A stretch of 29,970 bases of DNA from Candidatus Angelobacter sp. (GTDB lineage Bacteria > Acidobacteriota > Terriglobia > Terriglobales > Acidobacteriaceae): positions 1 through 29,970 of the forward strand of contig DATBVH010000280.1 in the NCBI GenBank assembly GCA_036515395.1, written 5' to 3'. This document shows, one piece after another, positions 4,565-29,836 of this stretch; position 1 is the first letter of the stretch; the number at the start of each line of letters is the position of its first letter. A program made the translations under genes and the position numbers. The notes beneath the pieces were generated by a model. The model searched no databases. It was not told where the DNA came from and saw only the letters and a list, made by a program, of their open reading frames with translations.

Positions 4565-4570
4565 GAGGAG
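4565..4570 (+). promoter_or_regulatory. Shine-Dalgarno site of the sheath gene
   Basis: GAGGAG 9 nt upstream of ATG 4580. Confidence 0.75.
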
Positions 4571-4579
4571 ACTAGAACC

Positions 4580-6238
4580 ATGCCTGCATCTTTGACCTAT
4601 CCCGGGGTTTACGTCGAGGAAATCAAGAGCGGTGTGCGCACCATCACCGGAGTAGCCACGTCGATTGCCGCGTTCGTCGGCAGCGCGGAACGCGGCCCTG
4701 TAAACGATCCAACCACGATTTTCAGCTTTGGTGAGTTCGAAAGAAACTTCGGTGGGCTGGATCTAGACCACAGCATGAGCTTTGCCGTAAGAGATTTTTA
4801 TCTGAATGGCGGCAGCCAGGCAATCATTGTTCGCTTGGTGAATGTGCCTGTTGCCGCGGCGGGGCCTGCTCCGGCACCGGGACCGGGACCTGCGCCAGCA
4901 GCTGCAGTGGCTCCCGCAATAGCGCAGATAGCGTTGCCAACCGGGGCGGCAGCTCCCAATGACAATCTTACGCTGGTTGCATCCAGTCCGGGCGCCTGGG
5001 GAAACCAGCTGCAGGCCATCATCGATACCAAGAACACGCGCGACAAAGGCGCGAGCAAGAAGCTCTTCAACCTCACCGTCCTGGAAATAGACGCCAACAA
5101 CACGGTGGTGCAAACAGAGAAATATCTCAATCTATCAATCGATGATTCCAACCCGCAGTACGCTCCGCGGCAGCTCAAGCAAAGCTCTTCGCTTGTCCGC
5201 GTCCTCAGGAATGACCAGGATACTGACTGGCTCGTTCCAAATGTTCTCCCAAAGGATACGAAGACCGATGCCAAAGGCAATGCGATTCCCGCTACAGTTT
5301 CAAAAAAGGGAGTCGATGGTGTCACTGCTGACGGTGATTTGCTGGCCGACGCGGATTTCTTCCCGCCGAATGGTCCAGAGAAGACGGGGGTCTTGGCTCT
5401 GGAAAAAGCAGACATCTTCAATATTCTCTGTATTCCCCCTTTCGGCACGGACCTTGAATATGCCAGCGTGATTTCGCAGGCTGTTCCTTATTGTGAAAAG
5501 CGTCGGGCCATCTGTCTGGTCGATCCTCCCACCTCATGGAATTCGGTCAAGACAGCCTTGGACGGCGTGGATCAGGTGCTCCCACGCAGCTCTAACGCAG
5601 CTTTGTTCTTTCCTCGGCTAGTCGAGCCCAACCCGCTGTTGAACAGCCAATTACAGACCTTTGTCCCTTGTGGCGCGGTGGCCGGTATCTTTGCCCGCAC
5701 TGACACTCAGCGCGGCGTGTGGAAGGCGCCTGCTGGAATTGATGCCACGCTGGCAGGAGTCTCGGATCTTTCCGTACATCTCACAGACGACGAAAACGGC
5801 CAGTTGAATCCAATTGGAATCAACTGTCTGCGTTCCTTCCCGATTGTGGGCAGGGTTGTGTGGGGTTCTCGCACCGCCAGAGGCGCAGACATTCTGTCTG
5901 ACGACTACAAGTACATTCCCGTGCGGCGGCTGGCCCTGTACATCGAGGAAAGCCTTTTCCGGGGTACCAAGTGGGTGGTGTTCGAACCCAATGATGAGCC
6001 GCTGTGGGCGCAGATCCGTCTGAACGTCGGCGCTTTCATGCAGGACCTGTTCCGGCAAGGAGCTTTTCAGGGCACCACGCCACGGGACGCGTACTTCGTG
6101 AAGTGCGATAAGGAAACGACAATCCAGAATGACATCAATCTGGGCATTGTCAATATTGTGGTAGGTTTCGCGCCTTTGAAGCCCGCCGAATTCGTCGTAA
6201 TCAAGCTGCAACAGATCGCCGGGCAGATCCAGGCGTAA
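4580..6238 (+). CDS. Contractile tail sheath protein (T4 gp18-like; Afp2/3/4 equivalent)
   Basis: N-terminal YPGVYVEE...ITGVATSIAAFVG, WKAPAG, LNPIGINCLR.F, VWGSRT, YIPVRRL, VVFEPNDEPLW, C-terminal VGFAPLKPAEFVVIKL. 552 aa. Confidence 0.96.
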   Translation: MPASLTYPGVYVEEIKSGVRTITGVATSIAAFVGSAERGPVNDPTTIFSFGEFERNFGGLDLDHSMSFAVRDFYLNGGSQAIIVRLVNVPVAAAGPAPAPGPGPAPAAAVAPAIAQIALPTGAAAPNDNLTLVASSPGAWGNQLQAIIDTKNTRDKGASKKLFNLTVLEIDANNTVVQTEKYLNLSIDDSNPQYAPRQLKQSSSLVRVLRNDQDTDWLVPNVLPKDTKTDAKGNAIPATVSKKGVDGVTADGDLLADADFFPPNGPEKTGVLALEKADIFNILCIPPFGTDLEYASVISQAVPYCEKRRAICLVDPPTSWNSVKTALDGVDQVLPRSSNAALFFPRLVEPNPLLNSQLQTFVPCGAVAGIFARTDTQRGVWKAPAGIDATLAGVSDLSVHLTDDENGQLNPIGINCLRSFPIVGRVVWGSRTARGADILSDDYKYIPVRRLALYIEESLFRGTKWVVFEPNDEPLWAQIRLNVGAFMQDLFRQGAFQGTTPRDAYFVKCDKETTIQNDINLGIVNIVVGFAPLKPAEFVVIKLQQIAGQIQA

Positions 6239-6243
6239 TCCGC

Positions 6244-6249
6244 AGGAGG
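6244..6249 (+). promoter_or_regulatory. Strong Shine-Dalgarno site of the tube gene
   Basis: AGGAGG followed by ACAT and ATG 6254. Confidence 0.75.
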
Positions 6250-6253
6250 ACAT

Positions 6254-6781
6254 ATGGCGCAGTTTACTGTCAACGCACAGAGGTTCGACCCGTATAAGAA
6301 CTTCAAGTTTCGCGTCAAATGGGACGGCAAGTATGTAGCCGGAGTTAGCAAGGTAGGCGGATTGAAGAGGACTACCGAGGTGGTCAAGCATCGCGAGGGC
6401 GGCGATCCCAGCAGCACAAGGAAGTCGCCCGGACGCACCGAGTTCGAGGCCATTTCTCTGGAAAGAGGAGTGACCCACGACAAGGAATTTGAGCAGTGGG
6501 CCAACAAGGTCTGGAATTTCGGCGCCGGTCTGGGCAGCGAAACCTCGCTGAAGGACTTCCGCAAAAATATCCTGATCGAGCTCTATAACGAGTCCGGCCA
6601 GCTTGCCATTACCTACAAGGTATATCGCTGCTGGGTCTCTGAATACCAGGCAATGCCCGATCTGGACGCGAACGCTAACGCCGTCGCCATTCAGCATATC
6701 AAGCTGGAAAACGAAGGCTGGGAGCGAGACGTTGAAGTAGCCGAGCCGGCCGAACCCTCGTTCACGGTTCCCGCCGTCTAG
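6254..6781 (+). CDS. Tail tube protein (T4 gp19-like; Afp1/5 equivalent)
   Basis: DPYKNFKFRVKWDG, HREGGD, KSPGRTEFEAISLERG, RKNILIELYNESG, YRCWVSEY, LENEGWE; directly after the sheath gene. 175 aa. Confidence 0.95.
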   Translation: MAQFTVNAQRFDPYKNFKFRVKWDGKYVAGVSKVGGLKRTTEVVKHREGGDPSSTRKSPGRTEFEAISLERGVTHDKEFEQWANKVWNFGAGLGSETSLKDFRKNILIELYNESGQLAITYKVYRCWVSEYQAMPDLDANANAVAIQHIKLENEGWERDVEVAEPAEPSFTVPAV

Positions 6782-6783
6782 CT

Positions 6784-7509
6784 ATGCGAGCACTCTCTGC
6801 GGAAGATTTGCTCAACGTCTGGGATGTGGGCCAGCGGCAGTGTCACTGGGACCGCGCGCTGAGTTTGCTTTCAGCCGCGAACCGCGATCAACCTCGGTCT
6901 GTCCTGGCTGATTTGAGCTTGGGAGAACGCGACCGGCTGCTGTTGCAACTGCGTCAGATCGTCTTCGGTCCGGAACTGGAGGGGCTTGTAGACTGCCCAT
7001 CGTGCGGGGACCATCTGCAGTTTATATTGCGCACGGCCGATTTGCTCGCGCCCGCGGGCCAGCCTGTGGGACTGCTGGAAAGCAACGGCTACCGAATTGA
7101 ATTTCGTCCTACGGTCGGAGCCGATCTGGAATCCCTGCCTGCTGACGTCGATGTCGCAGAGGCCAGAATGTTCCTAATTGATCGCTGCGTTCTCAGAGTT
7201 GTTTACAAGGACGCACAGGTCTCGACTGCAGACCTGCCGCCGGAAGTTATTCAGAAGCTTGCCGGCGCCATGGATGAGGTCGATCCGCAAGGCAACGTCG
7301 AACTGGCGTTGGTTTGCGCGGGCTGCGGCCATCATTGGCAACAGCTGTTTGACATAGCTAGCTTCTTCTGGGCCGAGGTCCATGCCTGGGCCATGCGCGC
7401 GTTTTATGAAGTGCACCAACTCGCGCTTAATTATGGATGGCATGAGGCGGAAATCATTCGGATGAACACCAGCCGAAGACAGATATACCTGGGAATGCTT
7501 GGAACGTGA
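6784..7509 (+). CDS. Tail/baseplate-hub assembly chaperone-like protein with two CxxC motifs and a DUF6760-like C-terminus
   Basis: LSLGERDRLLLQLRQIVFG, CPSC and CAGC, FRPTVGADL, C-terminal EVHQLALNYGWHEAEIIRMNTSRRQIYL resembling the small tail-assembly module that follows CIS tube genes. 241 aa. Confidence 0.65.
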   Translation: MRALSAEDLLNVWDVGQRQCHWDRALSLLSAANRDQPRSVLADLSLGERDRLLLQLRQIVFGPELEGLVDCPSCGDHLQFILRTADLLAPAGQPVGLLESNGYRIEFRPTVGADLESLPADVDVAEARMFLIDRCVLRVVYKDAQVSTADLPPEVIQKLAGAMDEVDPQGNVELALVCAGCGHHWQQLFDIASFFWAEVHAWAMRAFYEVHQLALNYGWHEAEIIRMNTSRRQIYLGMLGT

Positions 7510-8417
7510 ACGACTACTTCACCAACGTAGTGGTAAAAGCGCTGAACGCCGTGCCGGTGGTGCGACCACGGCTGGCGTCGTGGTTTGGTGCGCCGGGTCC
7601 TGATCCGGCAGAAGTGTCGCCGGAAATAACATCTAATAGCAATTTCTCCGAACAGCACGTCAACCAGAGTGCGAATCGCATAAACGCAGCGCCGCAACTT
7701 GATGCCGGACCCACAACGCTGCCAAGAGAAGCGCCGCCTGCAGAAGTAGCCCCGGCAGTCTTGCATGCAATAGGCGTGAGAAGAGTGACCACAGCCGATG
7801 ACGACAATGGGGGAAATTCCGAGGCTGAAGCTGCTGACGCCCCTTTAAGAATTCAGACAATTCCGAATGCTCCGGACCGCCGCGTAACTGGGCGGCTTCC
7901 GCGCCGGTTGCCTCCCATAGAAGCAGGAGCGCCCGAACAGGAAGTTACAGCAGAGTTGCACAAGAATGTTTCGCCGGAGCAGGCCACCGATGATCGGGGA
8001 CATGCGCCGAATGAAGTGAACTCCAACGATCGCGTAAGCGCAAGTCCCGCCTCTGCAGTAGCGGGCAGAAAAAGTTTCCAGGCGCTTCTTGCGCAACCAT
8101 CGGTTCATCCCGTGGTTGCAAATAGGGTAACAAAGCAAACTGCGCCAATAATGCAGCAAGAGAACGGCGGCAATGCTGGTGTGCAAAGGACAGAGCAAGA
8201 GTTACTATCTCATGCTCGCCAATTAGCGCCTGCCGGCATGGCGCGTGGGATGACAGCGGGAGCTGCTGCTGCGGACACAATCCATGTGAGCATTGGCCGC
8301 ATAGAGGTGAGGGCCACACCTGCGCCTCAACGCCCCAGAAATGAGCGCCAAGACCGCAAATCGCCCAATGCCCTGGAACAATACCTTGAGCGGCGAAGTG
8401 GAGGGCGGAATGAGTAG
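7506..8417 (+). CDS. Pro/Ala-rich, probably disordered eCIS protein with conserved ends
   Basis: GTG start overlaps the upstream stop (GTGA). Ordered-looking ends (MNDYFTNVV...RPRLASWF; IHVSIGRIEVRA...LEQYLERR) flank a low-complexity core. 303 aa. Confidence 0.75.
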   Translation: MNDYFTNVVVKALNAVPVVRPRLASWFGAPGPDPAEVSPEITSNSNFSEQHVNQSANRINAAPQLDAGPTTLPREAPPAEVAPAVLHAIGVRRVTTADDDNGGNSEAEAADAPLRIQTIPNAPDRRVTGRLPRRLPPIEAGAPEQEVTAELHKNVSPEQATDDRGHAPNEVNSNDRVSASPASAVAGRKSFQALLAQPSVHPVVANRVTKQTAPIMQQENGGNAGVQRTEQELLSHARQLAPAGMARGMTAGAAAADTIHVSIGRIEVRATPAPQRPRNERQDRKSPNALEQYLERRSGGRNE

Positions 8418-9639
8418 CCCCCTGGCAATTGCTGCCGTTACGGCGACGCTCCGCAACCTGCTCACGACGAGTATTGCCTCAGACCCGGAACTGAACGACA
8501 CGAATGTCACCATGCAGCCTTTGGACCGGGCGCGTCCAGCGGGGAACAACGCCAATCAACTCAACATTTTTCTTTATCAGACTCTCCCCAATGCCGCGTG
8601 GCGAAACCAACCCATGCCGGGACGCGTATCCGGGAATGAGATAGCGATGCCGCCGGTTGCGCTGAATCTTTATTACCTGATCACCGCATTCGGTCGCGAT
8701 AACGATCTTAATAGACCATTTAGCCATCAGCTTCTGGGCAAAGCCATCAGCGCGCTGAACGATCATCCGGTATTACTGCGGGACGAACTAAAGAATGGTC
8801 TACCCAACAACGATCTGTATGCGCAGATTGAACGGGTGCGCCTGACTCTTCAACCTCTCGCAGTGGATGAAATTTTCAAGTTGTGGTCCGGCTTTCAGAC
8901 GCAGTATCGGCTTTCGGTGGCATATGAAGCTTGCGTCGTATTGATTGACAGCGGTTTGCCGGCGAAGGCCGCTCTTCCGGTATTGACGCGCGGCCCGAAC
9001 AACAGCGGCATCGTGGCGCAGCCGAATCTGCTTCCGCCGTTCCCCGAGATCACGGACATTACGATTCTCTCGCACCAGCCGACAGCAATTCTTGGCGACA
9101 CCATCACAATTACCGGCCGCAATCTCACTGGTAGTATCCAGGCAGTGTTTCGCTCCGTAAGGCTGCCGGACCCGATTCGTGCAACTGCTCTTTCATCCAA
9201 AAGCGATCAGGTGCAGATCTTAATCGACAAGGACCCAGCCAAGTGGGTGGCCGGATTTTATACGGTATCGCTCGAACTGACCGAGAACAAAGGCAAGCCG
9301 GACGAAAGGGTGCGCACCACGAACGAACTTCCCTTCGCGATTGCTCCGGACATTACCACGAAATTTCCCATCAATGTTGCCGCGGGCGCGGCCGCTACCG
9401 TCAATTTGCGGTGCACACCACGCGTGCTGCCGGAACAGCGTGTTGCATTGCTCCTGGGGGATCGCGAGATCATCGCGGAGCCCATTGCTGCGCCCGTTGG
9501 CCAGGTACGCTTTTCGATTCCGCCTGCCGAACCCAACCGTTTGCTGGTACGGCTGCGGGTCGATGGCGTAGACAGTTTGCTGGTCGACCGCTCCGGGCCG
9601 GTGCCGGCATTTAAGGACCAAAGGGTGATCATTAAATGA
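8410..9639 (+). CDS. DUF4255/Pvc16-like tail terminator (cap) with C-terminal IPT/TIG-like Ig domains
   Basis: MSSPLAIAAVTATLRNLL, LNIFLYQ..PN..WRN, LNLYYLITAFG, KLWSGFQTQYRLSVAYEA, then PEITDI...GDTITITGRNL. Start moved from ORF-track 8341 to ATG 8410, which overlaps the upstream stop. 409 aa. Confidence 0.88.
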   Translation: MSSPLAIAAVTATLRNLLTTSIASDPELNDTNVTMQPLDRARPAGNNANQLNIFLYQTLPNAAWRNQPMPGRVSGNEIAMPPVALNLYYLITAFGRDNDLNRPFSHQLLGKAISALNDHPVLLRDELKNGLPNNDLYAQIERVRLTLQPLAVDEIFKLWSGFQTQYRLSVAYEACVVLIDSGLPAKAALPVLTRGPNNSGIVAQPNLLPPFPEITDITILSHQPTAILGDTITITGRNLTGSIQAVFRSVRLPDPIRATALSSKSDQVQILIDKDPAKWVAGFYTVSLELTENKGKPDERVRTTNELPFAIAPDITTKFPINVAAGAAATVNLRCTPRVLPEQRVALLLGDREIIAEPIAAPVGQVRFSIPPAEPNRLLVRLRVDGVDSLLVDRSGPVPAFKDQRVIIK

Positions 9640-11663
9640 GCAATGCTGCGTCCTGGCAAGAGGCCAATTCGCGCTTTCTCTCGCTTTCATTGCACTGGCT
9701 GCGGACACGGCTTGAACGCGCAGCAGAGCATGAAAGCCCAAAGCCTGCTCATGAAAATCGGGTTGCCGCGGCCGGCGACAGCGGCGATCCTGACACCCTT
9801 TTGAAACAACTCGCTGAACTGGAAAAGAAAATGGATCCTCCGCCCGCACTTGTGCTGCTCGCCCACCAATTCGGGCTATCGCGCTTTGAAAGAGATGTGC
9901 TTCTGCTCTGCGTGGCTATGGAGTTGGATACTCGCGTGAGCAGGCTGTGTGCCCTCGCCCAGAACAATGCCGGAACGTGCTTCCCTACTTTTGCTCTTGC
10001 GCTCATTGTCTTTGACGATGCCGCGTGGGAAGTGGTTTCTCCTGAACGTCCCCTCCGATTCTGGCGGGCGATTGAAGTGTGTACCTCGCCGGGCCAATCT
10101 CTAACCACTTCGCCGTTGCGCGCTGATGAGCGGATCGTAAATTTTGTGAAGGGGTTGAATCATCTTGATGATCGTCTGCTCTCATCGCTCACTCCGCTGG
10201 GATCGTGCGACGCCGCTGAAATAAGCGGGTCACAACAGGAAGCAGTGGAACAGATCGTCTCCCATTGGAGGAACGGATCCGGCCACGTTCTGCCGTTGAT
10301 TCAGCTGCTCGGTACGGATTCCGCCAGCAAGTATCTTGTGGCCACGGCCGCAGCCGAGCGCGTTGGACGCAAAGTCTATCGTCTGAGCCCCGAGTTGCTG
10401 CCGGCGCAACACGCGGAGATGGAAGTCCTGAGCCGTCTCTGGCAACGCGAAAGCCTGCTCCTGCCTCTGGCACTCTATGTTGATGCACAGGAGATGGATG
10501 CGGGATCTGAAACGATGTCTCAAGTGGCATTGCGACGCTTTCTGGCGCAATGTGAAGGCCTCGTGTTTCTTGGCACGCGAGAGTTCTGGCCCCGGATTGA
10601 TCGCCCCAGTTCCGCCGTGGAAGTACGTAAGCCGACGCCGGCCGAACAAGAGCGCGCATGGTCCCTTGCGCTGGGCGAAGTGGCGGACGGCCAACCCCCG
10701 AAGTTGGCAGCGCAATTCAATCTGAATCTCTCCACGTTGCAGAAGATCGTCCACACAGCCGTGGAAAGCGCGGCAAACGGAAGCGATCTTTCCCCGGTCC
10801 TTTGGGAGTGTTGCCGCAACAGCGTGCGTCCGCGCCTGGATCAGCTGGCACACCATCTGGAAGTGAAGGCCGGTTGGGATGACATTGTGCTTCCTCCAGA
10901 AGAAACGAACCTGCTGCGCCAGATCGCCGCACAAGTCGGTGCCCGCGCCAAGGTGTACGGCGAGTGGGGCTTTGCGCGGAAGATGAACCGCGGCATGGGA
11001 ATCAGTGCTTTGTTCGCGGGCGACAGCGGAACGGGCAAGACCATGGCTGCCGAGGTAATCGCCCGGGAGTTGCATCTGAATCTCTATCGCATTGACCTTT
11101 CCACGGTAGTAAGCAAGTACATCGGCGAGACAGAGAAGAACCTGCGCCGGCTGTTCGACGCGGCCGAGGATGGCGGCGCAATCCTTTTCTTCGATGAGGC
11201 CGATGCCTTGTTCGGCAAGCGCAGCGAGGTGAAGGACAGCCATGATCGCTACGCCAACATCGAAATCAACTATTTGTTGCAACGGCTGGAGACCTACAGC
11301 GGCCTCGCCATTCTTGCCACCAACATGAAAAGCGCTCTCGATCAGAGCTTTCTGCGCCGCTTGCGCTTTGTCGTTAACTTCCCTTTTCCCGGAGTCACAG
11401 AGCGCAGGCGCATTTGGCAAAGGGTGTTTCCTCCGGATACCCCGCTGGGCAGCCTGGATTATGACCGCCTGTCGCGCTTGAACCTGACTGGAGGCACAAT
11501 CCACAACGCGGCGCTGAACGCGGCCTTTCTGGCCGCGCACGCGGGAACTCCGGTCACCATGCCGTTGGTGCTGGCGGCGGCGCGGACTGAGATGCTCAAG
11601 CTCGACCGTCCTGTGAATGAAACCGACTTCATCTGCCAAGCGGGCCCGGAGGCGGTGGCATGA
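9636..11663 (+). CDS. eCIS AAA+ ATPase (Afp15-like) with N-terminal helical/winged-helix region
   Basis: FGLSRFERDVLLLC N-terminus, degenerate first AAA-like region, Walker A GDSGTGKT, Walker B LFFDEAD, DRYANIEINYLLQRLE, ATN...LD.SFLRR. 675 aa. Confidence 0.93.
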   Translation: MSNAASWQEANSRFLSLSLHWLRTRLERAAEHESPKPAHENRVAAAGDSGDPDTLLKQLAELEKKMDPPPALVLLAHQFGLSRFERDVLLLCVAMELDTRVSRLCALAQNNAGTCFPTFALALIVFDDAAWEVVSPERPLRFWRAIEVCTSPGQSLTTSPLRADERIVNFVKGLNHLDDRLLSSLTPLGSCDAAEISGSQQEAVEQIVSHWRNGSGHVLPLIQLLGTDSASKYLVATAAAERVGRKVYRLSPELLPAQHAEMEVLSRLWQRESLLLPLALYVDAQEMDAGSETMSQVALRRFLAQCEGLVFLGTREFWPRIDRPSSAVEVRKPTPAEQERAWSLALGEVADGQPPKLAAQFNLNLSTLQKIVHTAVESAANGSDLSPVLWECCRNSVRPRLDQLAHHLEVKAGWDDIVLPPEETNLLRQIAAQVGARAKVYGEWGFARKMNRGMGISALFAGDSGTGKTMAAEVIARELHLNLYRIDLSTVVSKYIGETEKNLRRLFDAAEDGGAILFFDEADALFGKRSEVKDSHDRYANIEINYLLQRLETYSGLAILATNMKSALDQSFLRRLRFVVNFPFPGVTERRRIWQRVFPPDTPLGSLDYDRLSRLNLTGGTIHNAALNAAFLAAHAGTPVTMPLVLAAARTEMLKLDRPVNETDFICQAGPEAVA

Positions 11664-11917
11664 ATATCAAACTCCACATCGAGCGTCTGGTTCTGGATGG
11701 ATTGCCAGTGACGCGCGCCCAATCGACCATTCTGAAGCAGGCGGTGGAATCCGAACTGTCGCGGCTGGTGATTGAAGGCGGGATCCATCCCGAATTGACC
11801 AGCGGTGGAGCGCTGGCCCATGTTCCGGGCGCATCGATGGAATTCGATCCTTCAGCGAGGCCGGCCGCATTAGGAGCGCAAATCGCGCAAGCCGCTTACA
11901 AGGGGTTTGGAAAATGA
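11660..11917 (+). CDS. Small conserved eCIS-associated hypothetical protein
   Basis: MNIKLHIERLVLDGL start; ATGA overlaps on both sides (11660-11663 and 11914-11917). 85 aa. Confidence 0.8.
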   Translation: MNIKLHIERLVLDGLPVTRAQSTILKQAVESELSRLVIEGGIHPELTSGGALAHVPGASMEFDPSARPAALGAQIAQAAYKGFGK

Positions 11918-13230: not shown

Positions 13231-13754
13231 TGGTAGGCCGGAGGGAATTGAAACAGCGGAGATTGGGCTTGAGCGAATCATTAAAAATTACGATTACTTC
13301 CATGGTGAGCCATGAAGATCTTCCCGGCACGGATTTGGAATACGTGGTCCGGAACGATATGGATTCGGCAATTTGGCTGGTCAACGATGGCTGGCTGACT
13401 TGGCGGCAGATGGGGCCAGAGATCGAATTGTCTTATGCAAGAGGCCGAATGAGGACGGGAGCGCAGGTGTTTGGTTATTTTCCACCGGATACCGTCAAGA
13501 TTCCACCAGGCGAGCAGCTCACGCGCACCATTCATCTCAAGTGGCCCCAGGCCCTTGATCGATTATGGAATACGGCGAGCGAGGCAAATCCCGCGCCAGG
13601 AAAATATCGAGTCTCGGTGCGAATCGGCTATGGAGCGACTCCGGGGCCGGAGCCGTCCAGGAGCGGGGAAGGCGTAGAGGAGCCGGTTCTCCGCTGGCAG
13701 CAAGAAGCAGTCAGTGAATCTGCAATGATGACGGTTTTTGGGAGCAACTCATGA
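13230..13754 (+). CDS. Hypothetical beta-rich protein; candidate immunity or adaptor for DUF4157 protein 1
   Basis: ATG 13230 overlaps the upstream TAA (TAATG). 174 aa with an Ig-like pattern (LEYVVRN, VKIPPGEQLTRTIHL, APGKYRVSVRIGYG). Function inferred from position only. Confidence 0.65.
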   Translation: MVGRRELKQRRLGLSESLKITITSMVSHEDLPGTDLEYVVRNDMDSAIWLVNDGWLTWRQMGPEIELSYARGRMRTGAQVFGYFPPDTVKIPPGEQLTRTIHLKWPQALDRLWNTASEANPAPGKYRVSVRIGYGATPGPEPSRSGEGVEEPVLRWQQEAVSESAMMTVFGSNS

Positions 13755-13847
13755 TCAGGGAAGGATTAATGTTCTGATTTTTTTGATTGGAGCAAAACGA
13801 TCGGGGTCTGCTCCTGGCAAAGCACACCCAAAGAAAGGAATGGCTGA

Positions 13848-16007: not shown

Positions 16008-16019
16008 GAGCGATAATTT

Positions 16020-16676: not shown

Positions 16677-16688
16677 ATAAGGAGCAGC

Positions 16689-18641: not shown

Positions 18642-18708
18642 CCATGCCGAACATTTCGTCGGCGCTTCATCGGTCGCGCACAGCACGCCAAAAAGGGAGG
18701 GTTTAGCC

Positions 18709-19032: not shown

Positions 19033-19037
19033 ACGAT

Positions 19038-22342: not shown

Positions 22343-25245
22343 ATCCGACCTGTGGTTGCTGCGATAGTATCCATCAGATCGTGCCGGAAAACACCGCCAA
22401 TCTTCCTGTTTTGAGCGCGATCCGCTATCGCATAGGCACCCATGCAACGTTTCTCGAGACCATGAAGGCGCGGCTGGCGAACTACTCTCTGCCCCAGGAG
22501 ATTCTGGACCGCTGCCTGGGTTCTAACCCCACGTTCCCTCTGAATGGTTTGCTGACCCGCGACTCCGAAGATCCCGCAATTGCGCTTCTGGATGCGTGGG
22601 CCGTGATTGCCGATGTGCTTACCTTCTATCAGGAGCGCATCGCCAATGAAGGATACCTGCGCACGGCGACCGAGCGCTTCTCTGCCATGGAACTCGCGAG
22701 GCTTATCGGATACAAACCTCGCCCCGGCGTCGCCGCCAGTGTATATCTCGCGTACATGCTCGAGAAAAACCATGCAGTTGACATTGCGCCGGGCAGCCGT
22801 GCCCAAAGCATCCCCGGGCCGGGTGAACTGCCACAGTCATTTGAGACCTCCGTCGTATTGAAAGCACAGGACGTCACTAATAACCTGCAGCCGAGAATGG
22901 TTCGACCGCAGAAAATCATGCCGGATACCGATGTGATCTACGCGAACGGCGTCAATACGAATCTAAAGCCCAATGACCGCTTGTTATTCGATTTTGTAAC
23001 AAGTTTCCCGGCAAATGCCGTAAATGACGAGAGCGAAAAAAAGATACCTCCCCTGATACGACGGATTATTTCGGTTGAGCCCGATAGTGTTAAGAACTGG
23101 ACCAAGATCACTTTGCTGTCCTCCAGCCAGAAACCGGGGAACAGGCCAAGCGAAAGCGCAAGCGTAGCTCTGAAGAAGGTCCTCCACAAAATGATTCAGC
23201 CCCTGGCCAAGGCTCCCGCACTACATCCTTCCGATCCTTCGCGGTTGCCGAGCGACCTGTCGACTTCATTCTCCGCCACCTCGGATGTTTTGCTCCGGAC
23301 CGTTGCCGCACTCAAGCCGGAGTTAAGCTCACGCCTGTACGCGGGATTGCAAAATGCCAATGTGAGTGAACCTCAAGAAGTGAATATCTTTGCTTTCCGA
23401 GTGCGTGCTTCGGTTTTCGGGCACAACGCCCCGAAGCACCAGAAATTCGGGAGGAACAATGAGATCGGGGACGCCGAAGAATGGCCTCTTTACGTGCCGC
23501 CATCAGTGCCGCAGCCTGTGACATTCCAAGATAAGGTCTTGGCTGGTGAAATAGAAATATCTCGACACCCGGTTAAGGCCACAGAAACACCGGACAAAGT
23601 GTCCCTCGATGCTGTTTATGACAAGATCATGGCCGGTAGTTGGGTTTTCCTGGAGCGAGCGGATTCTGGTAAATCAGAGCCGCTCCTGGTGACCAGGATC
23701 GGCAATGTGATTGAGCGCTCCCGTGCCGATTATGGGATCACCGCGAAAGTTACGGAGCTATATTTTGCTCGCGACACAAAAGTCGAATGGATCGATCCTC
23801 AAAAGGATGATTTGAGCACGATTCGCAGCACAATAGTATTTGCCCAAAGTGAAAATTTGGAATTAATTGATGAACCAATCGATGATCCTGTTCGAGGTGA
23901 CCGGATCGAGCTTGACGGCATATATCAGGGCCTTGAGGCAGGGCGCTGGCTGATCGTTGCGGGTGAACGCACAGACATTCCGGAAAGCGACAAGATCCAG
24001 GATGCTGAACTGGTAATGCTTGCAGGCGCTGATCTGGATACGAACGCGGATGTGCCAGGTGACTCGCTGCATACATTCATTAATCTGGCGAGCGGCGGTC
24101 TCGCTTTCAGCTATGCCCGTGAAACAGTCAAGATCTATGGCAATGTGGTTCCCGCCACGCACGGCGAAACCCGCAGTGAGGTCATGGGCAGCGGTGACGC
24201 TTCGCGGACGCTGCAGAGCTTTCAATTGCGGCAGTGGCCCCTGACGTACGTGTCAGCCACCACGCCCAGCGGAGCGCAGAGTACGCTGCAAGTTCGCGTC
24301 AATGAACTGCTGTGGCATGAGGCGGAGCAAGTGGCATATCTGGCGCCGGCCGACCGATCCTACATCACGCGCACGGATGACAGCGCAAAGACTACAGTGA
24401 TCTTCGGCAATGGCGTTCGTGGAGCGCGCGTGCCCACTGGCGTTGAGAATATAAAGGCCACCTATCGGACTGGAATCGGCGCGAGCGGCAACGTGGATGC
24501 AGGACAGATTACTCTCTTAACGACCAAGCCGCTGGGAGTTAAGGAAGTGATCAATCCGCTGCCCGCGTCCGGGGGCGCTGATCGCGACAGCCGCGATCAG
24601 ATCCGGCGAAATGCTCCCGTGGCTCTCATGGCGCTGGACCGGCTGGTTTCCGTGCAAGACTATGCGGAGTTTGCCCGAGCATTCGCCGGAATCGGTAAGG
24701 CTAGCGCCGTCCATATTGCGGCGGATGGGGGCGAGATCGTTTACGTTACCATTGCCGGGGCAGAGAATGCCCCGATCGACACGACGTCAGACCTGTTCCG
24801 GAACTTGCTTGCTGCGTTTGCCAAATTTGGCGACCCTCAACAGCCCGTGCGTGTTGGGGTGGCGGAAACCAAGCTGTTGCTGGTGCAGGCCACCATCGCG
24901 GTCCTGCCGGACTACCAATTCGAAAGTGTAGTTCCCCAGATTCGTGCCACGCTGCTCAGCGCGTTTGCTTTCGATAACCGAGACTTGGGCCAAAGCATCG
25001 CCGCCAGCGAAATCACTTCAATCATTCAGAACGTTGAAGGCGTGGCGCACGTGGAATTAAAAGCGCTTGGCGCCTCATCTGAGCAGGACATTACCGTTCC
25101 CCTCTCGTCGAGGGTGCCGCAAGTCATTCGCGTCGAACCGGCGCGGTTTGATCGAGAAGGACGGAATATTTTGCCGGCACAGGTTGTCTTTCTGACCCCC
25201 GATGTTCCAGAAACCCTGATTATCACGGAGCAGGAACATGCTTGA
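22339..25245 (+). CDS. Baseplate J-like wedge protein 2
   Basis: DPAIALLDAWAVIADVLTFYQERIANEGYLRTATER.S..ELARLIGY, VPATHGET, FGNGVRGARVPTG.EN..ATYRTGIG..GNV, DRLVSVQDYAEFARAFAGIGKA. 968 aa. Confidence 0.9.
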   Translation: MNPTCGCCDSIHQIVPENTANLPVLSAIRYRIGTHATFLETMKARLANYSLPQEILDRCLGSNPTFPLNGLLTRDSEDPAIALLDAWAVIADVLTFYQERIANEGYLRTATERFSAMELARLIGYKPRPGVAASVYLAYMLEKNHAVDIAPGSRAQSIPGPGELPQSFETSVVLKAQDVTNNLQPRMVRPQKIMPDTDVIYANGVNTNLKPNDRLLFDFVTSFPANAVNDESEKKIPPLIRRIISVEPDSVKNWTKITLLSSSQKPGNRPSESASVALKKVLHKMIQPLAKAPALHPSDPSRLPSDLSTSFSATSDVLLRTVAALKPELSSRLYAGLQNANVSEPQEVNIFAFRVRASVFGHNAPKHQKFGRNNEIGDAEEWPLYVPPSVPQPVTFQDKVLAGEIEISRHPVKATETPDKVSLDAVYDKIMAGSWVFLERADSGKSEPLLVTRIGNVIERSRADYGITAKVTELYFARDTKVEWIDPQKDDLSTIRSTIVFAQSENLELIDEPIDDPVRGDRIELDGIYQGLEAGRWLIVAGERTDIPESDKIQDAELVMLAGADLDTNADVPGDSLHTFINLASGGLAFSYARETVKIYGNVVPATHGETRSEVMGSGDASRTLQSFQLRQWPLTYVSATTPSGAQSTLQVRVNELLWHEAEQVAYLAPADRSYITRTDDSAKTTVIFGNGVRGARVPTGVENIKATYRTGIGASGNVDAGQITLLTTKPLGVKEVINPLPASGGADRDSRDQIRRNAPVALMALDRLVSVQDYAEFARAFAGIGKASAVHIAADGGEIVYVTIAGAENAPIDTTSDLFRNLLAAFAKFGDPQQPVRVGVAETKLLLVQATIAVLPDYQFESVVPQIRATLLSAFAFDNRDLGQSIAASEITSIIQNVEGVAHVELKALGASSEQDITVPLSSRVPQVIRVEPARFDREGRNILPAQVVFLTPDVPETLIITEQEHA

Positions 25246-27388
25246 GAACAGTGACCGCCTATACAACCTGCTTCCTGTTTACATCCGCCAGCGCGATGTG
25301 ATTGCCGGGCAGCCTTTGCGCGCGCTGCTGCAGGTAGTCTCGGAGCAGGTCAACCAGTTGGAGAGCGACGTTCAGCAGCTCTATGAAAACTGGTTTATTG
25401 AAACGTGCGAAGACTGGGTGGTCCCATATATTGGTGAGCTGGTGGGATACCAACTGCCCCCGCAAGCCGCGCTGACCGGCGCTGCAACGGATGGGCCGGG
25501 GCAACGCAGGCGTGTTCTGTCGCCACGCCGGGATGTCGCAAATGTAATCAGCTACCGCCAGCGCAAAGGGACTTTGGCTCTACTGGAACAGCTGGCGCAT
25601 GACCTTGCAGGATGGCCGGCACGGGCCGTTGAGTTCGGCAGGCTATTGGATGTCACCCAATCCATGCATCACCTGCGCTCTGAGCGGGGGAAATCCGTTA
25701 GCGTACGGCAAGTAGAGGCGCTGGAACTGCTTGGCTCGCCTTTCGATCTGCTGTCTCATTCAGTCGATGTCCACCGTATCGACTCCATGTACCGCCGGGG
25801 CCGCTACAGCATCCCCAACATTGGCGTGTTCGTCTTTCGCCTGCAGCCCTATACCGTCACCCGCGCGGAAGCACGATGCATGGAAGAAGAAGACAATGCC
25901 GGAGGCAACTGTTTTACGTTTAGCCCACTCGGCAATGACACTGCGTTATTTTGTTCTCCGGAAGCAGAGTCCGCGCCGAGGCGCTTCTCCGGTGAATTGA
26001 ATCTTCCCACCGCCATCCGCCGGCGCGCTTTTGAAGAGCATCTTTCGGAACGACCGCACAACATCGCCTCCGCCCGCTATTACGGCGAGGGCAAGAGTAT
26101 TACTCTCTGGGATGGCCGGCAGGCGATGGCTCCCATATCCCGGGAATTAATCATTCCCGCTGACCTGACGCGCTGGCACTATTCACCGCCTTCAGGTTAC
26201 GTTGCGATAGATCCTGAGCTTGGCCGCATCTGTTTTCACCCTGGTGAGGAACCGGAGGATGTAATCGTGAGCTATTCCTACGGCTTCAGCGATGAGATTG
26301 GAGGCGGCGAGTATCCACGGCCGGAATTCGCGCTCCAGAACGAACGACTCTATACGGTAGACTCTGGTGGGGCGGAAGCGCGAGGGCTTCTGCGCAAAGC
26401 GCTGGAGCAGTGGAAAGCAGAGCGACCGAAACGCGCTGTCATTGAAATCACTGATAGCCAGACCTACAGCGAGGACCGGCTGCCTATTGAACTCGCGCCA
26501 GGGCAGTTCCTGGAATTTCGCGCCCGGCAGGGGACGCGCCCCATTGTCCGCATCACTGATTCGGAATCAGGCCGGGCTGAGTCACTCTCCATCAGCGGGA
26601 GCGGCGGCGGAACTTGTATTTTTGACGGGGTGACCCTGACAGGGAGAGGCATCCAGGTCAAAGGTGGTGTGGAGGAAGTGATTTTCCGCCACAGCACTCT
26701 CGTCCCTGGATGGGGATTACATCACGATTGCAGGCCACGGCATGCCGGAGAGCCGAGCATTCTGCTCTTCAACAGCAGCGCCCGCGTGACCATCGAGCAT
26801 TCTATTGTGGGTGGCATCCGCTGTGAGCAACGCGAGAGAAAAAACGAGCCGAATGTCGTCCGGATTACGGATAGCATCCTGGACGCAACGGACCTCACGG
26901 CTGAGGCGGTGTGGTCTGAAGAAACGTTTGCCGCGTTTATCAAGCTCACAATCGCGCGTTCTACAGTGATCGGCAAAATGTTGCTTCACCAGGTCGAGCT
27001 TGCGGAAAACTGTATTTTCACCGGTGAAGTCACCGTGGCGCGCAGGCAATCCGGCTGTTTCCGATTCTGCTATGTGCCGCCTCATTCCATTACTCCGCGC
27101 CGCTATCACTGTCAGCCCGACCTGGCGATTAGCGCCCATGATGCGTTGAATCGGGCGGCTGCGGAGATGAGCGTGGCGCCGGTTTTCAGCAGCACACGTT
27201 ACGGCAACCCAACTTATTGCCAACTGGCTGAGAGCTGCCCCAATGAAATCCGAAGTGGAGCTGACGATGAGTCGGAGATGGGTGTATTTCACAATTTGTT
27301 TCAGCCGCAGCGCTATGCCGGATTGCGGACGCGGCTTGAGGAATATGTCCCGGCAGGCTCCCAGGTAGGAATTATCTTTGCGAGCTAG
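25238..27388 (+). CDS. Baseplate gpI/gp7-like protein (Afp12 equivalent) with a C-terminal right-handed beta-helix-like region
   Basis: RLYNLLPVYIRQRD, WFIETCEDWVVPYIGELVG, RRDVANVISYRQRKGTL; later strand repeats (IFRHSTLV, TIEHSIVG, RITDSILD, TIARSTVIG, AENCIFTG); ends GADDESEMGVFH. 716 aa. Confidence 0.8.
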   Translation: MLENSDRLYNLLPVYIRQRDVIAGQPLRALLQVVSEQVNQLESDVQQLYENWFIETCEDWVVPYIGELVGYQLPPQAALTGAATDGPGQRRRVLSPRRDVANVISYRQRKGTLALLEQLAHDLAGWPARAVEFGRLLDVTQSMHHLRSERGKSVSVRQVEALELLGSPFDLLSHSVDVHRIDSMYRRGRYSIPNIGVFVFRLQPYTVTRAEARCMEEEDNAGGNCFTFSPLGNDTALFCSPEAESAPRRFSGELNLPTAIRRRAFEEHLSERPHNIASARYYGEGKSITLWDGRQAMAPISRELIIPADLTRWHYSPPSGYVAIDPELGRICFHPGEEPEDVIVSYSYGFSDEIGGGEYPRPEFALQNERLYTVDSGGAEARGLLRKALEQWKAERPKRAVIEITDSQTYSEDRLPIELAPGQFLEFRARQGTRPIVRITDSESGRAESLSISGSGGGTCIFDGVTLTGRGIQVKGGVEEVIFRHSTLVPGWGLHHDCRPRHAGEPSILLFNSSARVTIEHSIVGGIRCEQRERKNEPNVVRITDSILDATDLTAEAVWSEETFAAFIKLTIARSTVIGKMLLHQVELAENCIFTGEVTVARRQSGCFRFCYVPPHSITPRRYHCQPDLAISAHDALNRAAAEMSVAPVFSSTRYGNPTYCQLAESCPNEIRSGADDESEMGVFHNLFQPQRYAGLRTRLEEYVPAGSQVGIIFAS

Positions 27389-27397
27389 GAGGAGTTC

Positions 27398-28834
27398 ATG
27401 AAAGGGGATTTTTCCCGATTTAACTTCGAGGCCAGGAAGGACTCTGCGAAGAAGCACTATGCACGTGTCCTGAAGCAGCAGGGCCGAGTGGACCTTGATG
27501 CTGACTGGAACGAACAGGTCGCTATTCTTTTGCATCGGCTGGAAACCATGGCGGCGGATATCATCGGTCCATTTGGAGGGCCAAGAGACGCGTGTGGATT
27601 CGAGATCACTCCAGACAAATGGGATTTCAAAATCTCCAAAGGCAGATACTACGTCGGCGGACTGCTCTGTGAGAACGACGACGAAAATACGACATTTCTC
27701 AAACAACCGTTTGCTCCTGCCGAAATGAAATTCACGCCGGGAATAACCTACGTGGTGTATCTCCAGGCATGGGAGCATTACGTAAATTCGATTGAAGATC
27801 CTGGCATTCTGGAGAAGGCGCTCGGCGGGACCGATACGGCAGGCCGTTCGAAGGTGGTATGGCGGGTAATGGCAAATGAATTCAATCCCTATAACGACGT
27901 GGAAAGCGTGAAACAAGCCATTAGGGAGGCAGAGACTGCCAATCCATCGGCAGACAAGAAAAGGCTGTTCACCTGCAAGATGCTACGGGACCATTGGCAC
28001 GATGTGCGGAACGTCTTTCATCCTCCAAACCGCGGGATGCTAAGTGTGCGGGCGGAACAACATGACCCGCGCAGTTCCAGTCCCTGTATTACGTCTCCTG
28101 CCGCCCGGTTTCGCGGCACGGAGAATCAGCTTTATCGTGTTGAAGTCCACTCGGGAGGTCCTGCCTCGGCCAGCCCGGTAAAACGGTCCAGCAAAGGCGT
28201 CATTGATCCCAATCTGGCAAGCTTCAGATGGTCACGAGAAAATGGCTCAGTCGTGTTTCCCGTAATTTCCGGTTCGGGAAATACAGTGACTCTTGCCGGG
28301 ATGAGAGGGGATGCAACACTTGACCTTAAGGTAGGAGACTATGTGGAACTGGTGGATGACGCCTCTGCTCGGCAGCCATCCACGCCGCTCATGCAAGTGG
28401 AAAATGTGAAGCAGTCTGAAAGGCAAGTCGTGCTGAAGCCCGCCCCACCCATCATTCCTGAGCACCAACATTCGTATTTGAGGCGCTGGGACCAAAAGGC
28501 AGGAACGGAAAACAAAGGCGGATTGGTCCTGCGCGAAGGAGAAGCCATCATTGTGGAAGATCGCTGGCTTGATCTGGAGGATGGAATCCAGGTTCGGTTC
28601 GAACCGGCCAAAAACGGAGTCCACCAATATCGGCCCGGCGATTACTGGTGCATTCCAGCCCGCACTGTTGACGATGGCAAAATCGACTGGCCGAGCCCTG
28701 TGGAGCCCCATGGCATTGACTATCGCTTTGCCCCCCTTGCGGTCTTGAATTGCACTGAGAAAGGGTTTGATCACCAGAATATGGGGAATTGCGTGATACG
28801 TTTTGATCCGCAGGGCCACTTTGGAAAGGTATAA
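27398..28834 (+). CDS. DUF6519-like tail-fibre base protein, with no C-terminal extension
   Basis: MKGDFSR, VLKQQGRVDLDADWNEQ, GRYYVGGLLCEN, ENQLYRVEVH, FRWSRENGSVV, LEDGIQVRF, YRPGDYWCIPART, APLA; SD AGGAGGAG at 27387-27394. 478 aa. Confidence 0.85.
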   Translation: MKGDFSRFNFEARKDSAKKHYARVLKQQGRVDLDADWNEQVAILLHRLETMAADIIGPFGGPRDACGFEITPDKWDFKISKGRYYVGGLLCENDDENTTFLKQPFAPAEMKFTPGITYVVYLQAWEHYVNSIEDPGILEKALGGTDTAGRSKVVWRVMANEFNPYNDVESVKQAIREAETANPSADKKRLFTCKMLRDHWHDVRNVFHPPNRGMLSVRAEQHDPRSSSPCITSPAARFRGTENQLYRVEVHSGGPASASPVKRSSKGVIDPNLASFRWSRENGSVVFPVISGSGNTVTLAGMRGDATLDLKVGDYVELVDDASARQPSTPLMQVENVKQSERQVVLKPAPPIIPEHQHSYLRRWDQKAGTENKGGLVLREGEAIIVEDRWLDLEDGIQVRFEPAKNGVHQYRPGDYWCIPARTVDDGKIDWPSPVEPHGIDYRFAPLAVLNCTEKGFDHQNMGNCVIRFDPQGHFGKV

Positions 28835-28912
28835 GCGTTTAACGACGAATTTGAGCTTGAACTAAGGAGTCAATTTAGAGGTAAGATGTATGACCTCGCG
28901 AGGTACCCTGGC

Positions 28913-29836
28913 ATGATCATTTGTCCTGGATGTAAGGCCGAAAACAAGGACGGCGTTGAGGCGTGCCCTTACTGCGGCACGAGTCTGGTGGCAGCCAAAA
29001 AATCTGCCGCTGCAGCAGCGGGAACCGGCGCCGTATCCTCGGGTAGTGCAGCTCCGGGTTTGAATTCCGCCGCAAATGCCGTCGACTCGGATCAGACAGG
29101 TTCCGGAGCACAATCCGCATCGCAGGTGCACCAAGGGGTGAAGGACTTATCCAGGCAAGTAGAGCTGGCCGTGGAAAAAGTGGTGTTAGGACAACCACAG
29201 AATGGTTCCGCGAATGTCCCGAACACAACACGGCGCAGGCTGCTGGCAGCGCTCGGCCTTGTGGCAACGGGCGGAGCTTCAGGATTTGGCGGGTTTCGCT
29301 TCGGCGCCGGTCATAGTGACGCAGCCAACTCGCAGGATTTGCAAACGAAGCTGCAGCTGCTGCTGACGGCAAATCAGAAACTCAATACCGCTATCGCAGA
29401 ACTCAACCGCCAACTCGCGAGCAAGCAAGCGGAATATGAAAAACTAGCCAAGAAGCAAACTTCATCCAGGAGCCAGGAAACGCAGATGGAGAGTTCGCTG
29501 CGCGTGACGGAGCAGAAGCTGAAGAAGGCGCAGGACGACGCAGCTTCGCTGCAACAACAACTCAATGCAGAACGCCATGGCGCCAAGTACGGCAAGATTG
29601 AGTGGACCGGCAACCTGGACAAAAAGGGAGAATCCCTGCTGGTGGAAATCAACAATGGGAAAGCAATGAAGGGATCGTTGGCCGGTGCGTTACCTGGAGT
29701 TCCCTGCAAAATCTATCCTATTGATGTATCGGCAAGTGTTGTGGAAGCGCCAAACCGCACGAGCCCCAACCATGTGGTCTTCCGCGTATATGGCAAGGGG
29801 AAGACGAGCGTAAGATTCTTCTGGGAAGTCAGCTGA
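28913..29836 (+). CDS. Zinc-ribbon / putative single membrane segment / coiled-coil / beta-domain protein
   Basis: CPGC...CPYC ribbon, Ala/Ser/Gly linker, RRR plus LLAALGLVATGGASGFGGF, heptad-rich coiled coil, C-terminal KIEWTG...LAGALPGVP...VVEAP beta-domain. ATG 28913 has GAGGT 8 nt upstream, better placed than for 28886. 307 aa. Confidence 0.75.
   Translation: MIICPGCKAENKDGVEACPYCGTSLVAAKKSAAAAAGTGAVSSGSAAPGLNSAANAVDSDQTGSGAQSASQVHQGVKDLSRQVELAVEKVVLGQPQNGSANVPNTTRRRLLAALGLVATGGASGFGGFRFGAGHSDAANSQDLQTKLQLLLTANQKLNTAIAELNRQLASKQAEYEKLAKKQTSSRSQETQMESSLRVTEQKLKKAQDDAASLQQQLNAERHGAKYGKIEWTGNLDKKGESLLVEINNGKAMKGSLAGALPGVPCKIYPIDVSASVVEAPNRTSPNHVVFRVYGKGKTSVRFFWEVS

Follow-up and report, generated by a model that had tools for sequence, protein, structure and literature searches.

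An operon for a lineage II contractile injection system in a soil member of the Terriglobia

The stretch of DNA analysed here (the window) is a whole contig of 29,970 bases, C280 (DATBVH010000280.1), from a fragmented metagenome-assembled genome (MAG; 4.19 Mb, 708 contigs, 74% complete) of Candidatus Angelobacter sp., and it carries a complete contractile injection system (CIS) operon at positions 4580-29836. The operon comprises 21 genes, all on the + strand, with intergenic gaps of no more than 93 nt and 12 junctions that overlap by 1-8 nt, mostly of the ATGA type; these tight gaps and coupled overlaps indicate one translationally coupled operon, in agreement with an earlier interpretation made without database searches (the sequence-only reading), which had described a single co-oriented core block. 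All 21 open reading frames (ORFs) are intact with coupled starts, and GC content is uniform over the operon and its flanks. Sheath, tube, gp25, baseplate-J and VgrG-type spike genes, the core set of the extracellular CIS (eCIS) superfamily, are encoded together (Pfam, NCBIfam) and are accompanied by the eCIS-specific markers: a Pvc16_N cap, an Afp15-type AAA+ ATPase and DUF4157/eCIS_core proteins. The earlier assignment to the eCIS-type contractile injection operons is borne out by these families, and it is almost certain that the system is a CIS of the known lineage II. An Acidobacteriota host had also been proposed, correctly so, because a same-genus relative with a matching locus (genome G019) belongs to the Terriglobia.

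The operon begins with a sheath gene (4580-6238) that is present in a single copy, as previously stated, and encodes a 552-aa Cis2/Afp2-4 homologue (Pfam Phage_sheath_1 and Phage_sheath_1C). Its best match in the PDB is the Streptomyces CIS sheath 8bky (E 2.6e-80, full length), followed by the Halogeometricum borinquense sheath 9ezm (E 3.3e-68, chiefly the C-terminal half). The sheath of the same-genus relative (G019:C48:32498-34387) aligns as two blocks, residues 1-208 and 204-551, that lie ~220 nt apart, which suggests that it carries an additional inserted surface domain, judging from the alignment. The inner tube protein (Cis1, gp19 type; 175 aa, 6254-6781) matches Pfam Phage_T4_gp19 (E 3e-46) and TIGR02241 (E 1.9e-44) and is 76-89% identical to its relatives. 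Next comes a T4 gp51-like gene (6784-7509; Pfam T4_baseplate E 5.8e-13; PHROG 150 'baseplate hub' E 7e-14), which occupies the tail-assembly-chaperone position and is syntenic in all relatives. Its product has four conserved cysteines arranged as two CxxC pairs, kept in 6/6 relatives examined, and these suggest a zinc-binding fold that is undescribed for T4 gp51.

The sequence-only reading reported no tape measure, and indeed no match to the afp14/tape-measure family was obtained anywhere in the window, but the corresponding slot is filled by a non-homologous candidate, a syntenic gene for a 303-aa protein (7506-8417) without a Pfam, NCBIfam or PDB match. Six syntenic proteins of ~240-335 aa share ~25 conserved N-terminal residues and a C-terminal block, I-x-V-[ST]-I-G-R-[IV]-[ED]-[VI]-R-A ... 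L-x-x-Y, separated by a non-conserved, disordered middle rich in Pro, Ala and Glu. The corresponding genes in phage P2 are ordered FI-FII-E/E'-T-U. The order sheath, tube, gp51-like, 303-aa protein and cap reproduces these P2-like slots for sheath, tube, chaperone, tape-measure protein and terminator, and the 303-aa protein may therefore be a length determinant or another protein of the tube lumen. The cap or tail terminator (Cis16/Afp16; 8410-9639) matches Pvc16_N (E 4.4e-48) and has a C-terminal Ig-like region with a weak TIG match; its start is probably ATG 8410, where the homologue alignments begin. The AAA+ ATPase (Cis15/Afp15; 9636-11663; Pfam AAA E 2.1e-25) has an N-terminal winged helix (WHD E 3.5e-18) and 45-56% identity to relatives. 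Between the ATPase and the first cargo gene lies a conserved gene for an 85-aa protein (11660-11917) with no family match; its syntenic homologues in loci of Caballeronia, Pyrinomonadaceae and Terriglobia are 30-36% identical.

Two genes for DUF4157 proteins, which are established CIS cargo markers, were recognised previously and are confirmed here. Cargo 1 (11914-13230; Pfam eCIS_core E 1e-30) combines an N-terminal DUF4157/eCIS_core module with a C-terminal zincin-like domain, and its residues 180-438 resemble Peptidase_M91 toxin modules in structure (TM 0.57-0.59) and in language-model features. This is a lead towards an M91/NleD-like C-terminus of the kind that serves as a zincin toxin module in RHS/PAAR proteins. 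The following gene (13230-13754), which has a TAATG overlap with cargo 1, encodes a 174-aa predicted beta-sandwich protein with no Pfam match. It belongs to a conserved family of ~160-aa proteins (Atlas scores 0.95-0.98) and gave a BsuPI protease-inhibitor lead (0.88), findings that fit, without proving, a candidate immunity or inhibitor protein for cargo 1. Cargo 2 (13848-16007; eCIS_core E 1.6e-31) contains an M35 aspzincin-like domain, for which the Aspzincin_M35 match of the excised domain (E 1.7e-4) was below the curated cut-off, and an unmatched C-terminal region of ~265 aa. The two cargos have a common Cys-rich leader and DUF4157 module and are divergent beyond it. A third DUF4157/eCIS_core gene lies outside the operon (contig C44:2435-2638, minus strand, open frame of 536 aa, E 4e-8) and is a candidate orphan cargo by analogy with those reported for H. 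borinquense.

Downstream of the cargo genes lies the baseplate block. The sequence-only reading counted a single tube gene, whereas a second tube-fold protein, a Cis5/Cis7-like beta-barrel, is encoded at 16020-16676; its Pfam CIS_tube match (E 0.0011) is below the cut-off, and it is syntenic and 51-64% identical in relatives. It is assigned as the tube initiator because of its place immediately before the LysM-like and hub genes. The former (16689-17000) encodes a small LysM/gp53-like baseplate protein of 103 aa (PHROG 'baseplate wedge subunit' E 4e-4 and 1e-3; Pfam Phage_gp53 E 0.045; 44-59% identity to relatives), and the latter (16993-18126) a 377-aa gp27-like spike hub (Cis8a; PHROG 52 tail protein E 4.6e-5), which shares 50% identity with its counterpart in G019 and whose residues 306-363 match positions 289-348 of the NCBIfam profile VgrG_rel. 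The spike itself (Cis8b; 172 aa, 18123-18641) is a gp5-like OB-fold protein (Pfam Phage_base_V E 1.9e-23, residues 12-86). A frameshifted VgrG, with overlapping ORFs at 16993-18126 and 17412-18641, was considered here and rejected in favour of separate gp27 and gp5 genes: an ATGA at 18123-18126 joins them, the VgrG_rel profile is split at ~18082-18132, and the same split is present in G019. A PAAR-like spike tip follows (107 aa, 18709-19032; Pfam DUF4280 E 9.9e-6, 26.6 bits against a cut-off of 26.3; PAAR_motif E 0.0039), and then a gp25-like baseplate wedge/sheath initiator (Cis9; 19038-19394, probable start ATG 19038; Pfam GPW_gp25 E 2.4e-19). Two baseplate-J/gp6-like wedge paralogues complete the core. 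Cis11a (983 aa, 19391-22342; TIGR02243 E 2.2e-89; Pfam Baseplate_J) matches the Baseplate J-like chain 9gtp_1K in the PDB (E 6e-11), an entry that also holds the 8bky sheath sequence, and Cis11b (968 aa, 22339-25245) matches TIGR02243 (E 2.5e-71) and Baseplate_J (E 3.3e-10).

The locus was also described as lacking fibre genes, and differences in targeting were deduced from this; both statements are contradicted by the two genes that follow Cis11b. The first (25238-27388) encodes a 716-aa putative baseplate-periphery protein for which Pfam gives no match, and its AlphaFold2 (AF2) model (pLDDT 91.5, pTM 0.88) contains, at residues 365-687, a right-handed beta-helix of the pectate-lyase/tailspike type. 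For this beta-helix, structural comparison yields Z 23.2 with a PL6 alginate lyase and Z 14-16 with numerous phage depolymerase tailspikes. Against a viral library the model gave short matches to Mu-like Gp48, 'Tail protein I' and baseplate wedge proteins (probability 0.99-1.0, TMt 0.39-0.44), and these Mu gp48/P2 gpI-like matches probably belong to the N-terminal part of the protein. In a near-identical contig, which encodes an identical DUF6519 protein, the gene (L016:2126-4276) is called in two parts (105 and 604 aa), which may reflect either an error in sequencing or a strain whose copy is broken. Pfam at E values up to 10 gave no match for the 716-aa, 303-aa, 85-aa or 174-aa proteins, and PDB sequence searches with the 303-aa, 716-aa, DUF6519 and gp51-like proteins returned nothing useful.

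The second fibre-like gene (27398-28834) encodes a 478-aa DUF6519 (eBAP5) protein (Pfam DUF6519 E 2.2e-76). Its AF2 model (pLDDT 85), in which a small beta-barrel is inserted at residues 283-366, matches phi812 baseplate proteins (E 5e-7) and the shoulders of lactococcal phage receptor-binding proteins (Z 7.8), and also Mtd, TssK, archaeal and cyanophage tail fibres and the tCIS baseplate chain 7b5h. On the strength of the model, the protein is a candidate for either a shoulder-type, baseplate-attached fibre or receptor-binding protein, or a TssK-like protein. DUF6519 has been described as the eBAP5 fibre-anchor domain, paired with Tail_P2_I adaptors in loci without Afp12, and TssG/TssK-like relations have been noted for the related eBAP3 type (PMC12923769). 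The window resembles this eBAP5 baseplate type in having no recognised Afp12, in the position of DUF6519 directly downstream of the putative gpI-like gene and the baseplate-J genes and in the modelled shoulder-like fold with its inserted small beta-barrel, and in the Levy scheme it appears to belong to the baseplate type with DUF6519 and a gpI-like adaptor. It differs from the published eBAP5 examples, in which macroglobulin, lectin or pectin-lyase domains follow DUF6519, since the DUF6519 of the window is bare, followed by no such domain, and it is the gpI-like protein that bears the pectin-lyase-type beta-helix. A truncated 'fibre stump' was rejected: the length is typical of close homologues (420-520 aa) and of the 80 loci fetched for comparison (~415-590 aa in 80/80), and as a bare DUF6519 with the beta-helix on the adaptor is the norm in these loci the idea of a stump is unsupported.

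The final gene of the operon (28886-29836; alternative start 28913) encodes a Zn-ribbon/coiled-coil protein (Pfam Zn_ribbon_3 E 5e-6) consisting of the Zn-ribbon, a linker of ~80 aa, an RRR motif with a Gly-rich hydrophobic segment, a coiled coil and a C-terminal beta domain. The sequence-only reading had called it a terminal membrane-type protein; such a protein is indeed encoded and conserved, although its hydrophobic stretch, rich in Gly, is a weak one (<1.6 in a Kyte-Doolittle window of 19 residues). By the positive-inside rule, the ribbon and linker would be cytoplasmic, and the coiled coil and beta domain periplasmic. Relatives were found in only 4 protein clusters out of 5.8 billion, at 44-99% identity, in a search limited by its word pre-filter, and an ESM Atlas search gave no usable match. 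The four aligned proteins conserve the CxxC...CxxC ribbon, T-T-R-R followed by the Gly-rich hydrophobic stretch, a heptad-rich region and, strongly, the C-terminal ~80 residues. In 5/5 contexts read (L014-L018) the gene lies directly after DUF6519. It is followed by a convergent Crp-type helix-turn-helix gene on the minus strand (L014:10965-11759, L016:6754-7626, L017:4296-5168), which implies that the terminal gene ends the operon. This Crp-type gene is found in all of the longer near-relatives, and its equivalent in the window would fall just past the contig end.

None of the 80 other loci that share this baseplate block contains the terminal gene, which is the only clade-specific component of the operon. 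In those 80 loci the position behind DUF6519 is either vacant or taken by unrelated genes, including a DUF6734 family (5 loci), a three-helix membrane family (4 loci) and DUF4157 genes (3 loci). The DUF6734 protein (~300 aa) is encoded in G019 (L013:7346-8269) and in L022, L035, L046 and L083, and its carriers span four phyla (Cyanobacteria, Gammaproteobacteria, Myxococcota and Acidobacteriota), which makes it a further accessory family of this variable slot.

The combination of parts was presented as unusual, yet nearly all of it corresponds to traits of lineage II as described by Chen 2019 (PMC6899500). In that lineage afp6, 12, 13 and 14 are divergent or absent: afp14 is generally absent in all subtypes, and afp12/13 are absent in most IIc and IId loci. 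Two afp11 copies occur in IIa and IIc, afp8 is split into gp27 and gp5 ORFs in IIa, IIb and IIc, afp10 is missing only in IIb, and each subtype has conserved genes of unknown function (PMC6899500). The window shares with IIa and IIc the two afp11 genes, the split afp8, the presence of afp10/PAAR, the lack of afp14 and subtype-specific genes of unknown function. No Afp12/13-type match was found in the window with Pfam, NCBIfam or PHROGs, and a true absence of both would be a IIc trait. On gene content, the locus appears to fit subtype IIc best, with IIa as a possible second choice. The term 'uncharacterised' is accurate as far as experiments are concerned, as no experimentally characterised member of subtype IIc was found in the literature searched, but it does not apply to cataloguing.

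Comparison with solved systems shows which features are shared. The Streptomyces coelicolor CIS (IId; PMC12237407, PMC10066040) has the closest solved sheath, and like the window it has a single sheath gene, DUF4157-type effectors, no annotated Afp14-type tape measure and a gene for a bitopic membrane protein (CisA) after the baseplate genes. IId systems of the Streptomyces type differ in that they have a single type of afp11, an unsplit afp8 and nothing fibre-like, where the window has two afp11 genes, a split afp8, DUF6519 and the beta-helix, and the Streptomyces system is cytoplasmic in a monoderm host; the Roseiflexus/Deinococcota clade of IId is likewise intracellular. The archaeal type VI secretion system (T6SS) of H. 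borinquense (IIa; PMC11566945, sheath in PDB 9EZM) also has split or duplicated Cis11a/Cis11b and Cis8a/Cis8b and no plug, tape-measure or crown homologues. It secretes DUF4157 proteins, whose genes also occur outside the cluster, as does the third copy in this MAG. It departs from the window in its Cis12 and Cis13 homologues, in its six-helix membrane anchor and in its attachment to the cytoplasmic membrane of an archaeon that lacks an outer membrane. AlgoCIS of Algoriphagus machipongonensis (PMC8894135) is an extracellular particle that carries two DUF4157 cargos (Cgo1/Cgo2) in the tube lumen, one of them with a metalloprotease-like C-terminus, and has a LysM element at the tube initiator; the two DUF4157 cargos, the metalloprotease-like C-terminus and the LysM element have candidate counterparts here. 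However, its LysM is fused to Alg7 (PMC8894135), whereas the LysM-like protein of the window is encoded by a separate gene, and AlgoCIS differs further in its Alg6 plug, Alg12, downward fibres, bipartite cap and larger sheath (match E 1.4e-35). DUF4157 cargos are also known from the tCIS.

The architecture is very widely distributed. Sheath homologues at ~57-68% identity number more than 8000, and their hosts include Acidobacteriota (Pyrinomonadaceae, Blastocatellia), Chloroflexota, Caballeronia and a Methanotrichaceae archaeon. Gene order is the same from sheath through hub in loci of Caballeronia sp. and a Pyrinomonadaceae MAG, and the same-genus genome G019 is colinear from sheath to DUF6519. 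The 716-aa protein has 4673 representative homologues and occurs in at least 597 species from more than 10 phyla (scan of one genome per species), and the order Cis11a, Cis11b, 716-aa protein, DUF6519 is kept in 80/80 of the loci fetched from among these species. The hosts of the 716-aa protein comprise Gamma-, Beta-, Alpha- and Deltaproteobacteria, Cyanobacteria, Acidobacteriota, Actinomycetota, Chloroflexota, Bacteroidota, Gemmatimonadota, Verrucomicrobiota, Bdellovibrionota and Methanothrix; the eBAP5 type was published as correlated with Actinobacteriota (PMC12923769), whereas loci of the window type span more than 10 phyla. Related sheaths are also present on megaplasmids of Rhizobium leguminosarum (58%), Ensifer adhaerens (48%) and others, while the plasmid-borne sheaths of Streptomyces clavuligerus and Deinococcus grandis, taken as IId-type, have only 31-33% identity. 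The window sequence itself was found in soil and rhizosphere metagenomes. The same architecture is therefore common, and characterised only in the sense of having been catalogued, not by experiment.

Transcription of the operon was looked for in soil RNA libraries, from runs that were chosen by the window's own words and in which DNA carry-over is possible. Four soil metatranscriptome assemblies contain contigs, without strand information, at 0-1 differences to the window, covering 4422-4583 (5' leader), six stretches of the sheath gene, two of the tube gene, 7377-7658 and 20394-20636 (baseplate-J). Five more soil RNA runs contain 5-7% of the words of the last two genes of the operon. These matches are suggestive of a transcribed operon, most strongly for sheath and tube. 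One further RNA contig (run X16) joins 4613-4630 to 17580-17598 via 10 unrelated letters; its matches are 18-19 bases long and it is most likely an assembly chimera or a chance match.

The interpretation favoured here, with a probability of roughly 0.6, is that the operon encodes a lineage II eCIS of soil Terriglobia, which injects its cargos from outside the producing cell and binds glycans through the beta-helix adaptor and DUF6519. By homology, gp27 hub, gp5 spike, PAAR tip, LysM-like protein, tube initiator, gp25 and the two Cis11 paralogues make up the baseplate, on which tube and sheath polymerise before the Pvc16-type cap closes them. The P2 order suggests that the gp51-like protein acts as chaperone and that the disordered 303-aa protein sets the length or fills the lumen. 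The AAA+ ATPase may aid assembly and the loading of the two DUF4157-tagged zincin-like cargos, by analogy with AlgoCIS Cgo1/2 and the haloarchaeal DUF4157 proteins, and the 174-aa beta-sandwich protein may shield the producer from cargo 1. Particles outside the cell would bind surface polysaccharide via the 716-aa beta-helix and a DUF6519 trimer, and contraction would follow, with delivery of the cargos. The terminal Zn-ribbon membrane protein would be a clade-specific accessory, possibly involved in release, sensing or regulation. The extracellular mode is favoured by a modest degree and draws support from the 716-aa protein, as a tailspike-type beta-helix is sensible only against extracellular glycans, and from the likeness of the DUF6519 model to phage receptor-binding shoulders and tail fibres. 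That the MAG (74% complete) yielded no canonical T6SS sheath also speaks for the favoured interpretation.

Several observations weigh against this interpretation. The closest solved sheath relatives, Streptomyces IId and haloarchaeal IIa, act inside the cell, and no lysis gene was recognised in the window. Tail_P2_I was not detected in the 716-aa protein by Pfam even at E 10. The DUF6519 protein ends with the DUF6519 fold and has no C-terminal binding domain, and its likeness to TssK, which links T6SS baseplates to membranes, points in another direction. The selection of the RNA runs and the possible DNA carry-over also temper the expression data.

The most serious alternative, though an unlikely one, is that the particles are retained by the cell, either in the cytoplasm or docked at the inner membrane, in the manner of the Streptomyces CIS with CisA or of the haloarchaeal T6SS, with the terminal protein as adaptor or trigger and the TssK-like DUF6519 as connector. 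The terminal gene occupies CisA's place just downstream of the baseplate genes, it occurs only directly after DUF6519 (5/5 contexts), and its product has a CisA-like predicted layout, with a flexible cytoplasmic N-terminus, RRR and one membrane segment, and a conserved outer domain with an oligomerising coiled coil. The terminal protein thus resembles CisA in position and predicted topology, not in sequence: no relation to CisA is detectable at that level and none of the four homologous clusters is named CisA. The intracellular origin of the nearest characterised sheaths, the TssK-like fold matches of DUF6519, the failure to find lysis genes and the haloarchaeal precedent, in which the mode of action correlates with an accessory membrane protein, can all be read in the same sense. 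Against this, the terminal protein has no detectable sequence relation to any family and is limited to four clusters, its hydrophobic segment is weak, and the other loci with the same baseplate lack it in 80/80 cases and have a variable or empty downstream slot. A pectate-lyase-type beta-helix has no obvious cytoplasmic ligand. Moreover, the host is diderm, so that a particle fired at the inner membrane would have the outer membrane to pass as well, and the window contains no trans-envelope genes. In a more specific and rather doubtful version, a standard DUF6519-type CIS gained the Zn-ribbon/coiled-coil bitopic protein in a narrow Terriglobia clade, where it tethers or triggers the particle at the inner membrane via the TssK-like DUF6519 or Cis11; it would then be an independently evolved CisA-like adaptor that puts the CIS to a cell-retained use in a diderm, in regulated cell death or in a T6SS-like role.

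A phage-derived origin, as a tailocin or as the tail remnant of a prophage that would kill by puncture alone and inject no cargo, is very improbable. The P2-like order of sheath, tube, chaperone, tape-measure protein and terminator, the gpI-like baseplate periphery, as in R-pyocins, and the likeness of the beta-helix to phage tailspikes would all suit such an origin. R-type tailocins, however, have a lysis cassette and a fibre with a chaperone and lack the ATPase, cap and DUF4157 proteins; the window encodes all three of these eCIS markers, with an Afp15-type ATPase, a Pvc16_N cap and two DUF4157 proteins. Capsid, portal, terminase and integrase genes were not found among the 24 ORFs of the window in Pfam and NCBIfam family searches, nor was a holin or endolysin recognised with Pfam, NCBIfam or PHROGs, in accordance with the earlier statement that lysis genes are missing, and the flanks are housekeeping. 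That the operon is silent or decaying and makes no particles is equally improbable: promoter and terminator were not recognised, the MAG is fragmented and the 716-aa gene is in two pieces in L016, but the 21 ORFs are intact with coupled starts, every component is clearly conserved and RNA-library contigs at 0-1 differences cover sheath, tube and baseplate-J, with 5-7% of the words of the last two genes in other runs.

Taken alone, the window locus adds little, as its architecture was already catalogued and Acidobacteria eCIS were listed by Geller et al. 2021. The sub-lineage to which it belongs is nevertheless very widespread, in soil, water and plant-associated bacteria and in Methanothrix, and no structural or functional study of a member was found in the literature searched. 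The locus raises the questions of whether the conserved, disordered protein of ~300 aa is the missing length determinant of lineage II, whether the gpI-like beta-helix protein rather than DUF6519 carries target specificity, and whether the mode of action is switched by the variable genes behind DUF6519, of which the membrane protein gene of the window is one example.

Outside the operon, no further CIS locus was found in the MAG by tblastn, there are no T6SS core genes among the 24 ORFs of the window, and TssC (PF05943), the canonical T6SS sheath, was not found in the MAG, which is 74% complete. The upstream flank (within 378-4258) holds an ABC-F ATPase gene, a minus-strand amidohydrolase gene and a stand-alone receiver-domain gene. 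The last of these (3845-4258, + strand) encodes a protein of 137 aa that matches Response_reg over the first half of the domain only (Pfam E 4.7e-7); it ends 320 nt upstream of the sheath gene and is a possible regulator, although its belonging to the system is uncertain. Scans for sigma-70 promoters and terminators recognised none and were uninformative. Upstream of the sheath genes of the Caballeronia and Pyrinomonadaceae relatives lie a sigma-54 activator and a conserved ORF of ~100 aa (L007:8289-9967, L008:7917-9916). Sigma-54 control was rejected for the window, which has no activator, no small upstream ORF and no -24/-12 match, and as 3845-4580 contains only the partially matching receiver domain, regulation appears to differ between members of this group.

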